From positions 38,626,001 to 38,690,000 of the forward strand of contig CM059445.1 of assembly GCA_030390025.1 (NCBI GenBank): a stretch of DNA of 64,000 nt, given 5' to 3'. Source of the stretch: Squalus acanthias. Taxonomy: Eukaryota. The notes beneath the pieces were generated by a model. That model was not told the DNA's origin and did not search any database. It was given only the letters and a program-made list of their open reading frames with translations. Both the position numbers and the translations under genes were made by a program. Of the stretch, positions 5,317-64,000 are shown piece after piece. The stretch's first letter is position 1. Each line of letters starts with the position of its first letter.

Positions 5317-6052
5317 GGCCCGTATTTTCCGATCCCTACGGGTGTGTGCGCGCTGTGTACACACCCGTAGGGACCTCGCAAGTGCCGGTTTCAGGCATGC
5401 AAAGCGCATGTGCTGAAAATCGGCACTTCCGATCTGTCAAGAATCCTCTTGACAGATCCTCCGCCTGCCCTGGAGAAGGGACTCTGCGGGGGGAGAGTTC
5501 CGCTTTCTGCAGAACCTCCGCCCGCTGAAATCCCTTAAAAATCTTACGCCTGGTAAAAGCAGGCGTAAGGCCTGCTTTTACCAGCATAAGAGTTTAAAAA
5601 AGTAAAAAAATATTTTTTTCACTCATTTATATTTTAAAAATACTTTAAAAAAAGTTAAGTTTATTTTTTTCAAAAAATAAAATTTTTGTTTAAAAATATT
5701 TAATTTAATGTAATTTTAACTAATTTTAAAAACATGCTACATTTTTTTTTTGATGTTTTGATGTGTTTTTTGAGTGATCCCCATTCATACTTTTGACGGG
5801 TCTAAGTTGAGAGACCTGTCAAAAGTATGAAGGAGGATTCCCTTCTTTCATTGGTTCCCCATGGCCCACGTGATCCCAGAGATGCTTGCGAACCGCATGC
5901 ATCCCTGGGATACCTGGGCCCTGCGCTTTTCTTAGAGCAGAGGCCCAGTAGCGGAAATGTCTGGATCACTGGAGCCCTCAGGTAAGGGCGTAGATTTTTT
6001 CCAGCTTGGAGGCCTCCGCACGCAGGAAGCCTCCGATCGGAAAATACGGGCC
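5317..6052 (+). mobile_element. Harbinger-type MITE, family B copy 1
   Basis: Perfect 18-bp TIR GGCCCGTATTTTCCGATC with flanks ACT/AAT. Homologous to 15803-16548 and 37739-38492. Confidence 0.9.
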
Positions 6053-15065: not shown

Positions 15066-15141
15066 CTCTACCTGAGGAAGGAGCGAACAGCTCCGAAAGC
15101 TTGTAAAATTAAATAAATCTGTTGGACTATAACCTGGTGTT
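15066..15141 (+). ncRNA. Minimal type-I hammerhead ribozyme motif in a PLE terminal-repeat fragment (family P2)
   Basis: TAC-CTGAGGA-A-GGAGC(gaaca)GCTCC-GAAA-GCTT-GTA at about 15069-15105. Downstream sequence matches the palindromic element at 18356-18540. Confidence 0.7.
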
Positions 15142-16900: not shown

Positions 16901-17874
16901 TTTCTGTTAACTGTTTTGAATATTCTTCTTCAAACTGTGAGCACTGCTGACTATCACTGTGGGAATTAACTGGGTGGAGTTGGTGATCTGAGCTGCATGA
17001 AGGATTTGTATTAAGCGCAGATAGTTGAAGTGACAAGATCACTGAAGCACTCTCAGCTAATGAGTGTGTCTACCGATGTTAATTCATTTTCGTCACACTA
17101 TAGGGTTCAGTAACTTCTCACAGCCAACTCACATGCCACCCTCCCTTGGATGAAGTAATAATGTTTGAGAATAAATATTCATAAATCAACAGGGGGAAAA
17201 CATCCAAAAAGGATGTTAAGTTTATTCAGTGTGTGATTGTGAGACTCCCCTTTAATTTACAGAGATTAATTTATGGATGACTGATATTTCCCATTTATGT
17301 ACTCAGTATTACTTATAAAGATGTCAATGCTGAGAAAAATTATCCAAGACTGCTATGTAACTTTTCAGTATATATTTTTCTTCCTACAGCTGAAATGTAA
17401 GTTACATTTGCAATAAAAAAAATGTACATGATTGAAATTTTGCTCAAGATTCTGGCTAATCATTTCTCAGAGATGAGTGCAACAAAAAAAAAAGTTTGGT
17501 ATCCTTTTGGTAATGGCACAGTGGGTGTAGTACCTTGAATTCACATCTAAACTGTGCTTACGTTTCGCAGGTCTCTTCTGGGCATGGGAAGGAAAGCCGT
17601 GGTGGAGATGGGGAAAGCCAAGCAATTGAGCGAAGGCAGCAAGGAGATGGGTTTTCTGCTTTTCTGATGCCAGCAATGCAATGTCCTGTCCATTCACTTT
17701 AGCGGACAGAAAATTGCAGGTGGACCACAAAGGTGGAATATCTGGACTTGAAATGTGGAAGAGGAGATGTAATGGGGGATAATCACAATCACAAAATTAA
17801 TTGTAAAAAATGCACTACGCCATAAGTACCATAAAGTCCCAGGTTCAGTTATCAATCTGACATGAATTAGTTGA

Positions 17875-18016
17875 AATAAAAACAGAAAATGCTGGAAATA
17901 CTCTGCAGCTTTCCATTAACTCTGTTTCTCTCTCTACAGATGCTGCCTGACCTGCTGAGTATTTCCAGCATTTCCTGGTTTTATTTCAGATTTCCAGCAT
18001 CCGCAGTATTTTGCTT
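17875..18016 (+). mobile_element. PLE terminal fragment (family P1) with short inverted arm
   Basis: 13-bp TSD ATGAATTAGTTGA at 17862-17874 and 18017-18029. Body matches the 3' end of the PLE at 63493-63973. Confidence 0.85.
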
Positions 18017-18355
18017 ATGAATTAGTTGATCTGTGCAGGGGTAGGGGAATCTCATCTCTGATTTCTAACCAGTGACCTCTGCTGGAAAGTGTACATGTGG
18101 GCATTTGGTGAAGACAAATCAGGCTTGGCGCTGATATTCCCCCCCACGCCCTCCTCCCCCAAGTTCTGTTAACAATTCTTAGATTCACACGAGACGAAAT
18201 TGGCCACTTGTGTGAGCTACTGGAGAAAGACCAGTGTCGACCTCAACAAGAATGAATGGCTACAGGAAGGGGGAGAATGGGAAAAAGAATCAATTTCTTA
18301 TGTTTTTATCTCCTTTTTAATTCCTCATCCTTAACGCACTGTATACCTTCATCTA

Positions 18356-18540
18356 GACAAAAATGAGAAGTCTCACAACACCAGGTTATAGTCCAACAGT
18401 TTTATTTGAAATCACGAGCTTTCGGAGCGCAGCGCTCCGAAAGCTAGTGATTGCAAATAAAACTGTTGGACTATAACCTGGTGTTGTGAGACTTCTCATT
18501 TTTGTCCACCCCAGTCCAACACCGGCATCTCCGCATCACA
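18356..18540 (+). mobile_element. PLE fold-back insertion (family P2) containing a 151-bp near-perfect palindrome
   Basis: Arms 18356-18429 and 18433-18506, centre GGAGCG-CAG-CGCTCC. Flanking repeat TTCATCTAGACA at 18348-18359 and 18541-18552. Confidence 0.85.
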
Positions 18541-19524
18541 TTCATCTAGACAGTAACAGGTAACCTGTCTTTGTTGTGTATCTGGCCACACGAGGTATGT
18601 GGAAATGTCTCAGGGTAACTTAGCTGTTCATTTCTCTCCCTCTCCTTTAAGGAAGTGCTTGGCCTATTTTACCCCCAAGAATGCAGATGAGAAGTAGGGT
18701 TTTGCATGTGAGGGAATCACAAGTGACAATCCCATTGCAAACAGGCTGCCTCAGTGCCAGTCCGAGCAGAATGATGGGGTTTGTACAGTTTTTACAAGTA
18801 ATAACTGAGCTACAACTGAAATAAATAATTATAGAGAATGTGCAGTACAGAAACAGGCCATTGGGCCCAACTCGTCTGTGCCGGTGTTTATGCTCCACTG
18901 TAAGGGTTTTTTTGGATCGTGCTTGTATCGCAGCCGGTGCTGGTGCGGGGTTAGGCCTTCGTTGCCTAATACTATTGCTTGCTCTGGTCTCCGGCCAGCC
19001 TTGTTGCAATAAGCACCTGTGAGTGGTTCGACCCACTCGCCCTTACGGTTCTAACGCTGGACTTAGGTGCGAGAGCAATAATGCAGAGAAAACTCAAATA
19101 GACCCGGTTGAATAGTACGAAATGGAAATCTTTATTGCATAGCGTCTAAAATCATGAAGTACATGTCATAGGCACAGATTAACGATAGTACAAGTAAACA
19201 TACATTCATAAAGCTTGGTCTATGGTAATGAAGAACGCACGGCACATCGTAGAAAGGGGAACACATTATAATTTATCCTTAATAAAAACCACCCTCCCCT
19301 ATCAATCCCTACGCTATATCTAGATTTGTAGGATCGGGAAGCATGCTCACCACTCGTGATATTTCGGAGGATTTTAAAGTGAGGCGTTTGGCTCGTTTTG
19401 CTGCAGCGCCTGACTGTCACGTGTTTGGAGGGGTCTCTGTACGCCTCTTGTTTATCTTCTCTGCTGCGACAAGCAGGCCAGATCGTCTGTTGTCATGAAG
19501 AATTCTGTAGACCTCGGACACGTT

Positions 19525-29412: not shown

Positions 29413-30582
29413 ATGGGGGCTGTACTGGCAGTCGACCTCGCCCTCCAGGATCTACTGCGGAGGGAGCAGAGAAAGATTGCAAGATGTGGCCAGAGGGAGG
29501 AGGAGGGCCATCAGGGCTCTCAACAGGAGTCCTTACCCTCCGAGGGAATTCCGAGAGCACTTCTCCTATCGCTAATTAAGCAAGGAGCAGCGCATTACAA
29601 GGCTCCGCTTCAGCAAGGATGTGGTCACCGAACTCTGCCCACCTCCTGCAACCAGACCTCCAGCCTCAGATCAGCTCGACCACGGCTCTCTCAGTGGCAG
29701 TCAAGGTCACTGTCGCCCTCAATTTCTTCGCCAGCGGTTCCTTCCAGTCTGCAACAGGAGATATAGTGAACATCTCACAGTTCGCCGTCCATCGCTGCAT
29801 CCTGGAAGTCACAGAGGCTCTCTACAGTAGAAGAAGGGATTACATTTCCTTCCCCATCACCAGAGAGAAGCACGGCCAGACGTGCATGTGGCTTTGCCAG
29901 GATAGCGGGCTTCCCCGTGGTGCAGGGCTACATTGACTGCACCAACTTAGCTTTGCAGGCACCGCATAACAATCCTGAGGTCTTCTGTAACTGCAAAGGC
30001 TACCACTCACTTAATGTGCAGTTGGTGTGCGACCACAGACAGCGAATCCTCAGTATGAATGCCCGCTATCCTGGCAGCAGCCTCGTTGCCTTCATCCTGC
30101 ACCAGACCAGTGTGCCAGCACTCTTCCAGCCACTACATCAAGCTCACGGCTGGCTGATCGTAGATAAGGGCTATCCGCTCTCCACCTGGCTCATGACTCC
30201 CCTCCCCAACCCCAACACTCCTGCCCAGCACTCATATAATGAGAGCCATGCTGCCACCAGGAAAATCATCGAGCAGACCATCAGGGTGCTCAAGCACCAG
30301 TTCAGCTGCCTTGACCACTTGGGAGGAGCCCTCCAGTACTCGGCTGAGCAGGTGTCCCATTTCGTCATGGTCCGCTGAATGCTCCACAACTTGGCCATCA
30401 TGAGGGCCCAGCCCTTGCCACCAGGGATTGTGGGACCACCTCAGGAGAAGGAAGAGGAAGACAAGGAGGCGGAGGAGGATGAGGAGGAACAAGAGCGAGG
30501 GAGGAGGCAGCCACTGAATCGGTGCTCACCACATCCCCATCATTCCATCCCTGTCGCAGGCCATATCACAGCGCAAAGCTGA
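29413..30582 (+). pseudogene. Harbinger DDE transposase (HARBI1-family), frameshifted
   Basis: Motifs KVTVALNFFASGSFQ..TGD..NISQ, VQGYIDCT, KGYHSLNVQLVCD, ARYPGS, DKGYP..WLMTP, YNESH..TR.IIEQ and LHN are spread over several frames, with a stop at 30376-30378. The expected GSxHD reads GSSLV. Confidence 0.92.
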
Positions 30583-30666: not shown

Positions 30667-32438
30667 CTATTCACCCTTGTGCAATCCTTTAGTGCCTCTC
30701 GTTACTGTGCCTTTGCCTACTCTAGTGCTCCTACGAAGTGTTGGCCCAGTGGCTGCAGCAGGGCTGGTGGAAGGCTGCTGAGTGTCTGTGCAGGAGACTT
30801 CAGATGGCCTTGCAGGACGCCCTCGACCAGCTCTGGGTCTGGAAGGCCCGGCTGCAGACTGCACCCCCTCAGCATGGGCGGCAGCAGTCTGGGCTGGCTG
30901 GATGACAGGCAGCGACAAAGGACAATGGCGAAGTGCCAGTGGTGGGAGCAGGAATGCTGTCATCCAATTGGCATCACTACCAGTCTGCTGGAGCACAGAT
31001 TGCTGGCCTGCTGCGACACCATGAAAGTCCCGGTGGACGGTCATCGACCCAGCCTATGATGGCAGCAGTCAGAGCTTGCGTGGCATCAAGCTGAGACTGC
31101 ATGAGAGCAGTCTGAGAATCAATGGCACCAAGCATAGACTGCATTACAGCACTAAGACATTGCGTGGCTTCCACCTGTGCTGCAATGGAAGCTTCGACAT
31201 CGCCCATCACACGCAGCATCAGGTCTGGGTCGCCACGGTCTCTCTGGGAGTCCACCATCCTTTGCAGACTGGAAATGGTGGGCTCCATGGTGTGCGCAGA
31301 GCTCTGTGCAATGTTGGAGACGGACTCCTCCACGCTCCTTACCATTATGGACAGGCTCTCAGGCACCCTTGCCATTGCACATATCATCTTTGTGTGCATG
31401 CCCATCACCCTTCTTCTAAAGGCCTCCCCATCGAGGTCCTCATCTGAGTCTTGTGCAGCAGAACCCGCGCGTGAACTCGCCCTCCGGGGAGCTGGCCTCC
31501 GAGCTACCCTTTCCCCCTGGCCTTGCTGCAGCCCACTCATCCCCAGTGCCTCACCCTGTGTAAAGAACGCGTAGTGTCAGTATCTGAGGTAGTGCCTGCG
31601 GGTGAGACATGCAGTGACGCGGTGTGTTCTTCCTTCTCCTCTTCTTCTGCCTCGCTGTCTATGGTGCCCTCAGGGACAGGGTGCTCAACTGTTTGCTCAT
31701 TATCTGAAAGTATAAAGGCACAAGTGTCGGGTTAAGGTGAGGGGAGGGGGACAGGAAGGGAGAAAGGCCACAAAGTGGGAAAGGCTTGTGAAGTGAGGAG
31801 GAAGTGGGATGTGAGAAGGAGTAGGGATGAACATCCCGTTGTTGTCCCCAAGGGGGTCAACGTCTCCGGTGGCCACGGCACCCAATGATTTGCAGCACTC
31901 TTTCCTCCAGCTCAGACAGTGGTTGGGTGTCAGGTTGTCCCCCGCCTGTGCGCTCCTGCTCCCTCCTGTTGTGAGCGACCTTGGCCTGCAAGAGAAAGGA
32001 AAGTGTGTGAGTGAGTGTGGAGCAATGTTTTTGGGAGATGTGAATGCCATAGTTGAATAGCTGTCATTGTTTGCAAGGTGTGAGATGTGGGTGTGAGTGT
32101 TGGTGGGTGAGTGCTGGGGGTGTGGTGCTTTGGCCAGTGTGTGCAGACTGTGGTTCAGATGGTGGTATGTAGCATTTGTTGAAGCCTTGACTCACCCTGA
32201 CCACCCGAGTGAGGTTGTTAAATTTCTTCCTGCACTGTGTGTGGGTCCTGGGGACCACAGTGCTGCCCGAGACCTGCTGGGCTACCTCCCTCCACATGGT
32301 GCAGAAGACTTGTGGCGAGGGCCTCCTGCCACTCGCCGGGTAGAGCACCGCCCTCCGTCTCTCCACAGCGAGGACCAAGGCCTCCAATGCTTGGTCGCAG
32401 AATCTGCGAGCTTTCTCCCTGGGCCGTTGATCTGCCAT
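30667..32438 (-). pseudogene. Harbinger Myb/SANT-like DNA-binding protein, three predicted exons
   Basis: Exon 1 at 32438-32196 (ARRF.D.ALEALV..V..RR.VLY...W.EVA..V......RT..QCRKKFNNL) ends at a GTGAGT donor. Exon 2 starts at 31985 (AKVAHNRREQERTGGG.P....LSELEERVLQIIG). Exon 3 starts at 31703. Frameshifts occur downstream. Confidence 0.88.
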
Positions 32439-32845
32439 AATGACACCTCCTTTAGTGGTCCGGTTCCTTCTCCTTGGCCTTCTGCTGCTTGCTGAGACAG
32501 CTGCAGAACCAGCAATGCGGAGAATGAGGTTCTGCAGCATGATTGAACCTCCCCTTTAAGAACTGGAAAGACCCTGTGGCAATGATGACCAGCGATTAGA
32601 CTGCACATGCAGCGAGATTCATTAGCGTCTGGCGCTAAATCTCAAACTTTTCAGAAGTTAGCGCCCATTGCTGGGCTACAATGAATTTCTTCCCCATAGG
32701 ATCAGCTTTCACATGTATGCTGATGACACCTGGTTCTACCTCTCCACCACCTTTCATGACCCCACCACCCCCTTTGCTTGTCTGCACCCAGTTTTCAACC
32801 AACAACAATTTCACCCCACTAAATATTTGGAAGAACAAAGACATT

Positions 32846-40120: not shown

Positions 40121-40299
40121 GGGGGGGGGATATTTTAACCTGTTCCGCCTGTCGGGGAACTGATGGGATCGGGTGAAACATTGGTTTTACACCCCCCACC
40201 CTGATTTTACTCTCCATTTAGAGTAATATTAGGCTGGGTGTAAAGCCAACGTTCCACCCGATCCCATGGATTTCCCGCGCATTAAGTTAACATTACCCC
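40121..40299. mobile_element. Small fold-back MITE inside an old tRNA-SINE head
   Basis: Long internal inverted repeat (tgggatcgggtg...tttacaccc / gggtgtaaa...cacccgatccca). Ends ggggatattttaac and gttaacattacccc. Confidence 0.65.
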
Positions 40300-42460: not shown

Positions 42461-43199
42461 AGTGTACAGCCCACTAATATGTATTCTGCAATCCTTTTAG
42501 GACTAGATGCGTAGACTTACACTGTACACGCCTGGTGAACAGAGAGGATGTTTTACTCCTGGAGCAAAGGAGCAGGCTTTGAGGCAAACCACCGTGGAGT
42601 GAGAAAAACATGGGAAAGGGTAGACAGTAGGCTGGTACGCAACTATAAAGTACTGTTCTGTCTTTAACCAGACAGAGCGCTTTAACTCAACAGTATGAGC
42701 TGTCATTTGAATTGCTTGAGTATGCTCGTAGCCTGCAGGCATTTTCATCCTCCACCTCTCAACCACCGAGGCTTGAGTAAACTTTGAGACTCTTGCTCCG
42801 AGCATGGTTGTTTTTTGAGCCTATTGTCATGTTGTGGCGATGTTTGGATTCTGAAGAGTGTCATGTGTCGGAAGCATCTTTACAACTATTGTAAAAGATA
42901 AAGCAATTCTATGCAATATCCCGTTGTATCCCAAGAGGAATAAGCAAGGGCAGGAGTACAGGGCCTGAAGTTGCGTGCTTTGATTTACCGATGGAATCAA
43001 TCAATCAAACTGTATCCTGTAAAGACAGATAGGTTGATTCAATCATTTATTTTTTAGTTTATAAAAATGGTTGACAAAAAGGTCTAATTTTGATATGATT
43101 TCTTCTCTGGTCATAAAGGACTCAGTGGCTGCAACGAACGAGTTGCAATTCAGGATCTACAGCAGAAAAGAGTGCTATATAATTTTGAATATATAAATA

Positions 43200-43563
43200 C
43201 AGGAAACTCTTTATTAACCGGCACCGACGGGACCGGCGTGGTGCCGGTTAATCAAAAAGTCCGGATAACGGAGAGTTATATCTCCCAACGTACGAGAGCC
43301 CCGTACACACTGACATGCGCCTGCATTCGGAGCTCCGTCTCCCCGGGGACCGCCAGCTGACCATCTGTCGTGTCCGCTGCCTACCCGGGCTGCACATTCC
43401 CCTCCCAATCTACACGCTCCGATACAAGGCAAACGCCTCGGGGTTTTTTTTAAAGTTATTTTTAAAGGAGAGATGAAGGAAAACCCCGGTTACCTACTCA
43501 AGAATTTTGCCGGTTAAGAGAGATTTCCGGTTATTTGGGTGCCGGTTAAAAGAGAGTTTCCTG
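43200..43563. mobile_element. Tc1/mariner (pogo/Tigger-like) MITE, 364 bp
   Basis: 26-bp TIRs CAGGAAACTCT(TTA/CTT)TTAACCGGCACC. TA TSD at 43198-43199 and 43564-43565. Confidence 0.88.
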
Positions 43564-43565
43564 TA

Positions 43566-43832
43566 AATATAAGATAGTCACCAATAAGTCCAATAGGGAA
43601 ATCAGGAGGAAATTCTTTACCCAGAGAGTGGAACTCGCAACCACATGGAGTAGTTGAGGCGACTAGCATAGATGCATTTACGGAAAAGCTGGATAAACAT
43701 GAGGGAGAAAGGAATAGAAAGTTATGCTGAAGAGGAGTGGGAGGAGGCTCGGATGGAGCATAAACCAATTGGTATGGACCAGTTCGGCTGAATGGCCTGT
43801 TTCTGTGCTGTACATTCTATGTAATTCTATGA
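43566..43832 (+). mobile_element. CR1 3' fragment
   Basis: aggaggaaattctttacccagagagtgg...gaatggcctgtttctgtgctgtacattctatgtaattctatg tail. Confidence 0.85.
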
Positions 43833-44741
43833 ATATATATGGCAAGTAAATTCAACCATAAATAGTCAGTTTTTCATAGAAAATATTCTTTTTATCCCAC
43901 TAAAGTATTTTATTTTGGTGTGACCTACTAGCCAATACTAAATTAAGATTGCACATCAATATGTGAGCGCAAAACCACTGCTTTCATAATATTTAAACAG
44001 TAGAAAATAAAATAAGAATAAAGGAGAGGAGGATGATGGTCATCTCCTACAAGACAGGACAACACCATCACCAGTACATGTTTCACTGCCATCATCTGAT
44101 AGATTACATTTTGAGAACATGTTGCTAGCTGTAAAATAATTCTATCTAAAAACCTGCTCCAGCCTTGTAACTTACTCCACACAATACTATAGTTTTACAT
44201 AGGGTTGAGGGAGTGGATGTTTAGGCCAATGGATGAGGTGATGATCAAGTGGACCACTTTGTCCTGGATGGTGTCGAGCTTCTTGAGTGTTATTGCAGCT
44301 GCACCCATCCAGGCAAGTGGAGAGTATGGGACAACACTGCTGACTTGTGCCTTGTAGATGGTGGAGAGGCATTGGAGAGATGGGAGGAGAGCCACTTGTC
44401 GCAGAATACCCAACCTCTGACTTGCTGTGTTGTAGCCATGGCACTTATGTGGCTGATCCAATTGAATTGTGTGAAATAGACGTACACAAAAAGTCGTTGA
44501 AACGTTAGCTCAGTCTTTTATGCTCAAATTATCTTTCTAAGCCGGGCTTAATAAAAGAGGAAGGTATTGGGGCAGAATGTTCGTTATCGAGGGGGTGAGT
44601 CTGCTTCACAACATCACTCATTGTCAGATAGTTTATTAATTTGATAATTCCGTGAAGTTCAAAACATTCTTTATACTGAGAAGCGAAAACTGACATACAT
44701 CTTAGATAGTCAGTAACTTTTAACAAATAGCAGATTACTCT

Positions 44742-44965
44742 GGCAAAATACTGCAGATGCTAGAAATCTGAAATAGAAATAGAAAATGCTGGAAATACTT
44801 AGCAGGTCAGGCAACATCTCTGGAGAGAGAGAGAGAGTTTAGGTCTCTCAACTCTCAGGTCGATGGCCTATCGTCAGGTCACCGACCTGAAACGTTAACT
44901 CTGTTTCTCTCTCCACAGATGCTGCCTGGCCTGCTGAGTATTTCCAGCATTTTCTATTTAGAGAT
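44742..44965. mobile_element. PLE fold-back insertion (family P1), two opposed terminal-repeat arms
   Basis: 15-bp TSD ATAGCAGATTACTCT at 44727-44741 and 44966-44980. The arms meet at ...tcgtcag|gtcaccgacctgaaacgtt... Confidence 0.85.
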
Positions 44966-45005
44966 ATAGCAGATTACTCTACATTTCTCTCCATTGTGAG
45001 ATTAA

Positions 45006-62660: not shown

Positions 62661-64000
62661 GGGCTGGTATTTTCCTTGCCTTGGTGGGTCCTGTGCGGCC
62701 AGTGTCCGTGGCGAGTTCTGACCCTGCTACAGGCTCCATCCCGCTGTACAAAATGAACTTATCTTAATGGGGCCTATTAAGCCCGCACAGCGCGTTACCC
62801 AGCCCAATTAGATGGAGCAGGTCTGGTGACATCATTCATGACTCGTTTTAAGCCGGGATCCTTACTCTACAATAATATATTAAAAGTTATGTATGAGTGA
62901 CAAAGAAATATTTAAATAATATTATCATTAAGTAATGATGCATCTTCAAATATGATCAAGAACATAATTTAAAAAGTACATTAATCGGAAAGTTATTGGT
63001 GCTTTAGTCACAATTCTATAAACTTTTGTATCAGTAACTAGTGCAAATAAAAGATGTGTGTATAGGTAATACCTAAAATGAAGCAGATTTTAAATGTAAT
63101 TGTAAAGGGGTGGATTTACAATCTTTTGCAAGTTCAGCAGTAGAGCTGCGGAATCCCTGACAAACAGTGTAAGTGATGCTTACAATGTGTTTCTGGGATT
63201 TCTGCAGCTCTTCTGTTGAAGTTAACAATGGACAAGTGAGAGAACCTCTTCAGAAATTCACCCTAAAGTCTCAGACTGAAAAATTAAATACCCATTTTTA
63301 GGGACTGAAAGCAAATTGAACCCGTGGAATGAGTGATGAGAATGAAATTGTTACCGGTTAATGACTTGATTTAATGCAAAACTAGACAATCACAAGTATA
63401 CTGTGAGAAAAACCTGACCAGAAACAACACAAAAATGTATTTAAATGGTATATGTCATTTTTTACAGTGCAGGTCAATTCACTGCAATTACTCAACATAA
63501 GCTCGAGGAACAGCACCTCATCTTTTGGTTAGGTACTTTACAGTCTTCTGGACTCAACATAGAGTTCAACAATTTCAGGCCATAACCTCTGCCCCTATCC
63601 TTTTTTCCATTTATTTTATTATTATTTTTAATTTTTTGTTTTTTACTCTCCCACATGGCAGCTGTCTTTCATTCTGCCAGTGCCATTTACACTTCATCTA
63701 GAGCAATCTTTGCTCTGAACTTGTCCCATTACCATCTCCTTTTGCCTTGCACCATCTCTTAATCTCTCCTGCCTTCCATCCTATCACAGATCTTCCCTTT
63801 TGTTCTTTCCTCCCCTCCCCGCCTTTCCCTTCGCCTGCACTAGCTTAAAAATCTGTTCCATCTCCAGCTTTTTCCAGTTCTGACGAAGGGTCATCGACCT
63901 GAAAAGTTAACTGTTTCTTTCTCCACAGATGCTGCCTGACCTGCTGAGTATTTCCAGCGTTTTCTGTTTTTATTTCACTGCAATTACTGTTGAGTTTCAA
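62661..64000 (+). mobile_element. Non-autonomous Harbinger element, family E copy 2 (runs off the window)
   Basis: Colinear with 32846-33745 apart from a deletion after gggatcctta and a PLE insertion. Confidence 0.9.
63493..63973 (+). mobile_element. 5'-truncated Penelope-like element: GIY-YIG C-terminus, 3' UTR and hammerhead-containing terminal repeat
   Basis: Reads QHKLEEQHLIFWLGTLQSSGLNIEFNNFR. Hammerhead CAGTT-CTGACGA-A-GGGTC(atc)GACCT-GAAA-AGTT-AACTG at 63875-63913. 15-bp TSD TTCACTGCAATTACT at 63478-63492 and 63974-63988, with the empty site visible at about 33722-33736. Confidence 0.92.

Follow-up and report, generated by a model that had tools for sequence, protein, structure and literature searches.

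A palindromic insertion, very probably of a Penelope-like element, that turns inside hammerhead helix II out of register with the stem

Inverted insertions of Penelope-like elements (PLEs) are well described. An inverted, 5′-truncated copy with a tail of 30–40 bases on one end is given as a standard structure in the available portions of two papers (PMC8557442, PMC8969392). Self-priming was inferred by Arkhipova et al. 2013 from palindromes at inverted Penelope junctions, and the same paper, in its available portion, describes repeats whose 5′ ends carry 18- and 38-base palindromes (PMC3846280). In that portion, self-priming is placed on an antisense template and the palindromes are not related to hammerheads. 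Minimal type I hammerheads of metazoan PLEs were described by Cervera and de la Pena 2014, whose accessible text also records them as opposite-strand pairs 100–700 bases apart (PMC4209133). For PAc, the Poseidon element of Anolis carolinensis, the accessible part of Frangieh et al. 2024 reports that both target strands are extended and that hammerhead cleavage is not needed for in vitro insertion; inverted junctions are not modelled in that part (PMC11167929). Beyond PLEs, excerpts on R2 describe cDNA snap-back junctions seen in cells; among the junctions of the transgene assay they form a minor class (PMC11371274, PMC11331408). Twin priming and self-annealing have been described for L1; in its twin priming, according to the available text, another part of the RNA becomes inverted and no 3′-end duplication is left (PMC11702581).

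The locus at 18348–18552 of the window (the whole 64-kb stretch of DNA that was analysed) is a genuine and clean example of a structure already known. With inverted-pLTR insertions of endonuclease-containing PLEs, as presented in the available parts of PMC3846280 and PMC8557442, it shares the head-to-head truncated copy, the tail on one arm, a duplication of variable length, a short junction palindrome and a proposal of self-priming; it differs from them in keeping the last 110 bases only and in its one-base spacer. Its family resembles the minimal type I hammerheads, so far as the available text of PMC4209133 defines them, in having a CTGA-N-GA box, a 5-pair helix II, GAAA, AGCT and a short helix I, whereas the copy at the locus has neither the CTGA box nor the 5′ side of helix I. 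The two start sites that bound the tail in PAc match the bimodal 3′ ends of the family (PMC11167929, available part). An inverted insert copy joined at short matches is also common to R2 snap-back and L1 twin priming, as excerpted (PMC11371274, PMC11331408, PMC11702581). The insertion comprises the following features.

18345–18359, forward strand: left target-site duplication, with an exact core at 18348–18359; in organisms F and G, the contigs of the inferred empty site begin to align at 18541.
18356–18359, no strand: overlap, by its letters (GACA), of the left duplication with the outer end of the inverted arm.
18356–18430, reverse strand: inverted arm without tail; its outer end corresponds to 18502–18506, inside the second cluster of family 3′ ends (18496–18508).
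18424–18438, no strand: 15-base centre, made of the helix-II 3′ strand backwards, a GC overlap (18429–18430), the loop AGC and the 3′ strand GCTCC forwards.
18429–18506, forward strand: forward arm, with the last 2 bases of the helix-II 5′ strand, the loop, the 3′ strand, GAAA, the AGCT palindrome, the helix-I GTGA and downstream repeat sequence.
18446, forward strand: predicted hammerhead cleavage base of the forward arm, following the motif layout in the available text of PMC4209133.
18489, forward strand: rare letter A, with its mirror base at 18373 in the inverted arm; C or T in other copies.
18507–18540, forward strand: tail, carried by a single arm; the main peak of family 3′ ends is at 18538.
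18541–18552, forward strand: right target-site duplication, exact core, from the repeat comparison and the contigs of organisms F and G.

A preliminary description of this DNA had reported a near-perfect 151-base palindrome centred at 18431, the replacement of the upstream catalytic box, a unique 3′ extension and a 12-base flanking repeat, all taken as a PLE insertion with an inverted segment, and these structural claims were borne out. The arms (18356–18430 and 18432–18506) are 75 bases each and pair with one another at 73 of the 75 positions, A18431 being the sole spacer; the mismatched pairs are 18409/18453 and 18416/18446. The DNA fold of 18348–18552 reached −86.8 kcal/mol (z −22.5) and was equalled in stability by none of 200 shuffles. 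It was the only centred palindrome in the window with arms longer than 19 bases, the best arm in 5 shuffled windows being 20, and no second copy of it was seen in the window. The exact 12-base repeat TTCATCTAGACA flanks the insertion at 18348–18359 and 18541–18552, and is 15 bases long with one mismatch if counted from 18345/18538. The tail, 32–34 bases from 18507 to 18538/18540, follows the right arm on its 3′ side, and GACA forms both the final 4 bases of the left duplication and the first 4 of the inverted arm. The CTGA-N-GA box had no match on either strand of 18348–18552.

Taken together, these features make 18348–18552 one insertion, about 190 bases long, in which two arms stand head to head, a tail follows one of them and the target site is duplicated at the flanks. 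The variable-length duplication, the one-sided tail in the range of 30–40 bases and the head-to-head, inverted, 5′-truncated copy follow the PLE pattern, and we are highly confident that the element behind it is Penelope-like. Having lost its CTGA box along with the 5′ strand of helix I, the palindrome copy cannot form the ribozyme and is inert in that respect. No coding part of this family, such as the telomerase-like RT or GIY-YIG endonuclease of a parent element, was seen within the window. Two local observations are added here. The arm difference at 18446/18416 coincides with the predicted cleavage base (A versus C, with T in the copy at 15072), and a 9-pair stem of 18465–18473 with 18513–18521, downstream of the ribozyme, encloses the start of the tail.

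The age of the insertion and the form of its family were examined with contigs from four public runs (X1, X5, X12 and X14, of 24 listed), aligned to 18401–18640. In organisms F and G, the alignment of a 671-base contig started at 18541; its depth was that of a single copy (10 and 12.1), and it continued for 222 and 351 letters, respectively, that did not fit the element. We infer that these contigs are the empty site; the aligned stretch began at 18401, and their upstream part is presumably the left flank. The insertion is absent in F and G and is therefore young. A 382-base contig of run X1 matched the tail and the flank with no difference. In run X5 positions 18553–18640 were without cover, but only about 55% of that run was read, and we draw no finding from it.

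The family itself is very abundant, with 9578, 6567, 1808 and 1711 aligned contigs across the four runs, and has a sharp tail boundary and marker letters. Loose ends, representing family 3′ ends, fell at 18538 in 157, 141, 23 and 27 cases in the four runs among the best-ranked ends, beyond which there were 264 more. Among the ends listed, the distribution was bimodal in all four runs (18538 and 18496–18508), with an additional peak at 18532 in F and G. Letters other than C or T at 18489 made up 0.46, 0.86, 0.23 and 0.69% of depth in X1, X5, X12 and X14, respectively. Depth was lowest at 18433–18440, and none of the 32 listed contig pieces began before 18429.

The preliminary description had equated the centre of the palindrome with helix II. 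Before 18429, the listed loose ends of other copies have the sequence ...CACCTGACGAAGGA in every one of the four runs (25, 10, 5 and 16 contigs), and the commonest family helix II, with 264 further ends beyond those listed, is GGAGC-AGC-GCTCC, 13 bases with its axis at G18432. The centre at the locus is 15 bases with its axis at A18431, that is, two extra bases and one base off the commonest axis; the inverted arm ends in GGAGCGC, the forward arm starts at 18429, and GC is shared at the joint. The 18431 axis is thus within the helix-II loop and out of register with the stem, so the earlier equation is right about the loop, but GGAGCG-CAG-CGCTCC is not the commonest form of helix II. The stem register could be rescued by a 2-base slip after insertion or by a minor variant with a 15-base helix. 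When the loose-end consensus was combined with the letters of the window, a predicted minimal hammerhead could be completed at the family level (box, helix II, GAAA and helix I TCAC/GTGA). No hammerhead family of Rfam was matched in the window, which gave two weak matches to microRNA families elsewhere.

The earlier identification had relied on a comparison with 15072–15102, part of another copy.

15072–15141, forward strand: comparison copy from a related subfamily in which the helix-II loop has 5 bases; over 62 bases it is 84% identical to the forward arm.

Its helix-I letters differ from those of the family at the 18431 locus. Because this copy belongs to another subfamily, with a 5-base loop and another helix-I variant, the 15-base helix had appeared native.

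The mode of turning was compared with that of the other inverted copies in the window, both of a second family.

17862–18029, no strand: inverted insertion of the second family with a 13-base duplication; its junction contains 7 filler bases and lies downstream of the ribozyme core.
44727–44980, no strand: inverted insertion of the second family with a 15-base duplication; its arms join outside the loop, at an AG match that lies between the CTGA box and the helix-II 5′ strand.

Neither of the two has its junction in the helix-II loop. The tail-bearing arm is the longer one in all three inverted window copies (by 3, 8 and 36 bases), and the junction matches are 2, 2 and 0 bases long. The tail-less arms of the second family, at 17872 and 44959, share their end bases with uninverted copies at 63977 and 62012, respectively (2 of 2). 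All 12 joints listed from the read contigs are asymmetric, the shorter arm starting 15–80 bases past the G of GAAA and lacking helix II, but this list is biased: it is cut, lacking two joints that are named elsewhere in the results, the left side of its skip joints is confined to 18420–18430 by the stretch aligned, two of its entries may come from the same locus, and it cannot hold a junction centred on the stem, which would show up as a gap of 2 bases and not as a listed joint. Joints with letters, read by hand, had matches of 0–3 bases or 1–2 filler bases, and three listed joints span the whole ribozyme core to or beyond the CTGA box. At the centre, no 2-base gap reached 1% of depth in any of the four runs; this threshold corresponds to about 540 (X1), 235 (X12) and 260 (X14) times the single-copy depth, and the limit is weak, as copy number cannot be read from summed depth. 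Since the other window copies and the listed joints turn elsewhere, helix II is not the obligatory turning site.

Several further observations were made on these joints and copies. The inverted joint 18422–18454 has a depth of 401 in X1, about 30 times that of the unique flank, and 18427–18464 a depth of 120 in X14, about 10 times single-copy; each is possibly a recurrent junction or a composite unit. In four of the 12 listed joints, two of which may be one locus, the shorter arm begins at 18464–18468, the edge of the 18465–18473 stem. In the left arm of the 44727–44980 insertion, the bases following helix II are replaced at 44820–44856 by inverted pieces of the adjacent TC-rich run, forming an extra hairpin (z −2.2) that resembles a template-switch scar. 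The segment 63478–63988 is an uninverted, tail-less copy of the second family, about 490 bases long, with a 15-base duplication and a short frame at its 5′ end that may resemble the end of a Penelope GIY-YIG domain. A 46-residue frame of the second family (63445–63582) matched no Pfam family and had no homologues. Inverted-repeat structures of unrelated sequence at 40153–40277, 43192–43571 and 5777–5838 are possibly small DNA-transposon derivatives, the first of them having only a weak Rfam microRNA match. Two frames (29770–30378 and 32064–32555) resemble a piece of a Harbinger-type transposase and its Myb/SANT partner.

Among the explanations weighed for 18348–18552, an early stop of reverse transcription followed by snap-back of the cDNA end at a short match is the one we tentatively favour. 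The target would have been nicked by the element's endonuclease, and reverse transcription would have begun at the tail end (18538) and halted after about 110 bases within helix II. The 3′ end of the cDNA would then have re-primed on the cDNA through a 1–2-base match, out of the stem register, and after 75 bases had been copied back the new end would have used the 4-base match, GACA, to join the other target strand. The arm differences would be due to two later mutations, and helix II would be a chance stopping place of this copy and no dedicated primer. Snap-back is suggested by the longer tail-bearing arm in all three inverted window copies, as it predicts, although three copies are few and the pattern would arise by chance one time in eight. 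It is also suggested by the rare A at 18489/18373, which is common to both arms. The shared A excludes unrelated templates; one source locus or later conversion still fits it.

Several points weigh against snap-back. The rare shared A is evidence of a common template or of later arm-to-arm conversion, not of snap-back as such. The outer end of the inverted arm lies in the second 3′-end cluster, and each second-family tail-less arm stops exactly where an uninverted copy does; a snap-back strand would have no obvious reason to stop at such places, whereas a second target-primed cDNA would. The lack of any coding sequence of this family among the letters seen also counts against this account. The observed register is, moreover, a poor intramolecular primer: for a cDNA ending at 18429, the pairing probability of the last base was 0.006 in the observed register versus 0.028 in the stem register, both small.

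Snap-back stands narrowly ahead of twin priming, which we consider quite possible. Here both nicked target strands would prime reverse transcription of RNA from a single source locus, one strand at the tail end and the other at the tail start, and the two cDNAs would halt near the ribozyme core and join at the 2-base GC match. The Anolis protein is reported to cut and extend both target strands from two start sites that bound the tail (PMC11167929, available part), and the bimodal family 3′ ends, with the inverted arm beginning in the second cluster (18496–18508), agree with such a scheme, as do the second-family inverted arms that end where uninverted copies end (2 of 2). The 4-base match at the outer junction fits as well; at least 2 matching bases are given for 71% of L1 twin-primed 5′ junctions in the accessible text of PMC11702581. 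However, the stopping points of the two cDNAs would have to lie no more than 3 bases apart here, and no more than 8 and 36 bases apart in the other two copies. The tail-bearing arm was the longer one in three of three, and the rare letter common to both arms excludes RNAs from unrelated loci.

The use of helix II itself as a recurrent stall site and fold-back primer is quite unlikely as an account of this locus. This earlier model supposes priming in the stem register followed by 2-base GCGC slippage, or a minor subfamily with a 15-base helix. The axis does lie inside the helix-II loop, and according to the folding model a cDNA with the whole stem copied could form a hairpin of 5–6 pairs with its 3′ end paired. 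The rotifer repeats with 18- and 38-base palindromes at their 5′ ends, together with a 15-base overlap at an inverted junction, may lend the model some precedent (PMC3846280, available portion), and two opposite-strand joints among those listed have one side at 18434 and 18441. The centre is nevertheless off register by 2 bases: in place of a junction with a 13-base centre in the native stem register, a 15-base centre with a 2-base overlap was found. Neither the two other window copies nor the 12 listed joints, the latter from a biased list, are helix-II-centred, and the central 2-base gap stayed below 1% of depth in the four runs. Inverted structures also occur in Naiad/Chlamys elements, described without canonical hammerheads in the available part of PMC8557442. 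The proposal that the ribozyme stem itself acted as the primer is not supported at this locus, given the 15-base centre in place of 13 and the pairing probabilities above. Of the earlier fold-back proposal, the cDNA fold-back remains a fair mechanism, with the rare letter present in both arms, but the stem as primer does not, since the stem register would leave a 13-base centre.

Later collapse of a longer structure is very unlikely. In this case longer arms with a spacer would have come first, followed by a deletion between the helix-II copies or by template-switch hairpin correction. Because helix II is self-complementary, its two inverted copies do form a direct repeat, and microhomology deletions are reported in Penelope copies (PMC3846280, available portion); arm-to-arm correction could also account for the shared rare letter. 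A deletion at the 5-base stem match, however, would leave a 13-base centre, the persistence of two arm differences means that correction is not continual, and the insertion is young.

It is most improbable that the palindrome multiplies in its own right, either as a MITE-like hairpin element or as a composite propagated as one unit. The raised depth of the joined forms 18422–18454 and 18427–18464 suggests that some inverted forms may be multicopy, but the tail is one-sided with a 12–15-base duplication, all 32 listed contig pieces start at or after 18429, depth falls to its minimum at 18433–18440, and the window holds no second copy.

A pattern scan for further copies returned no stretches in viral contigs and none in metagenome contigs, and a blastn search of plasmids gave no match. 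Further readings were rejected. A MITE-like hairpin DNA transposon would have many uniform copies and symmetric terminal inverted repeats in place of a one-sided tail, and the centre is crossed by no listed contig piece. A non-LTR retrozyme has complete hammerheads arranged head-to-tail, as given in the available part of bioRxiv 10.64898/2026.07.22.740005, versus the single head-to-head unit without catalytic box seen here. An old second-family repeat as the target was dismissed, its score of 23 being equalled by 19 of 300 shuffles.

With snap-back as the favoured reading, the palindrome probably arose by an ordinary copying accident, of a kind already known, rather than by a ribozyme-primed mechanism. 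The preliminary description had considered the link between fold-back and the ribozyme undescribed. In our literature search no paper tying the inverted junction to helix II was found, PMC6431247 being silent on it in its available part; Arkhipova et al. 2017 and the rotifer sequences of PMC3846280 may bear on the question. The general idea of self-priming at junction palindromes already appears in the available portion of PMC3846280.

A helix-II hotspot is not shown by the 18431 locus. We regard as unlikely the wider view in which the hammerhead core acts as a roadblock to reverse transcriptase, helix II is a preferred site of stalling and snap-back, and a measurable share of inverted insertions are stem-centred palindromes. 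If true, such a hotspot would give the hammerhead fold a cleavage-free role in second-strand priming, and it would connect the origin of inverted copies with the retention of a hammerhead that is dispensable in vitro.
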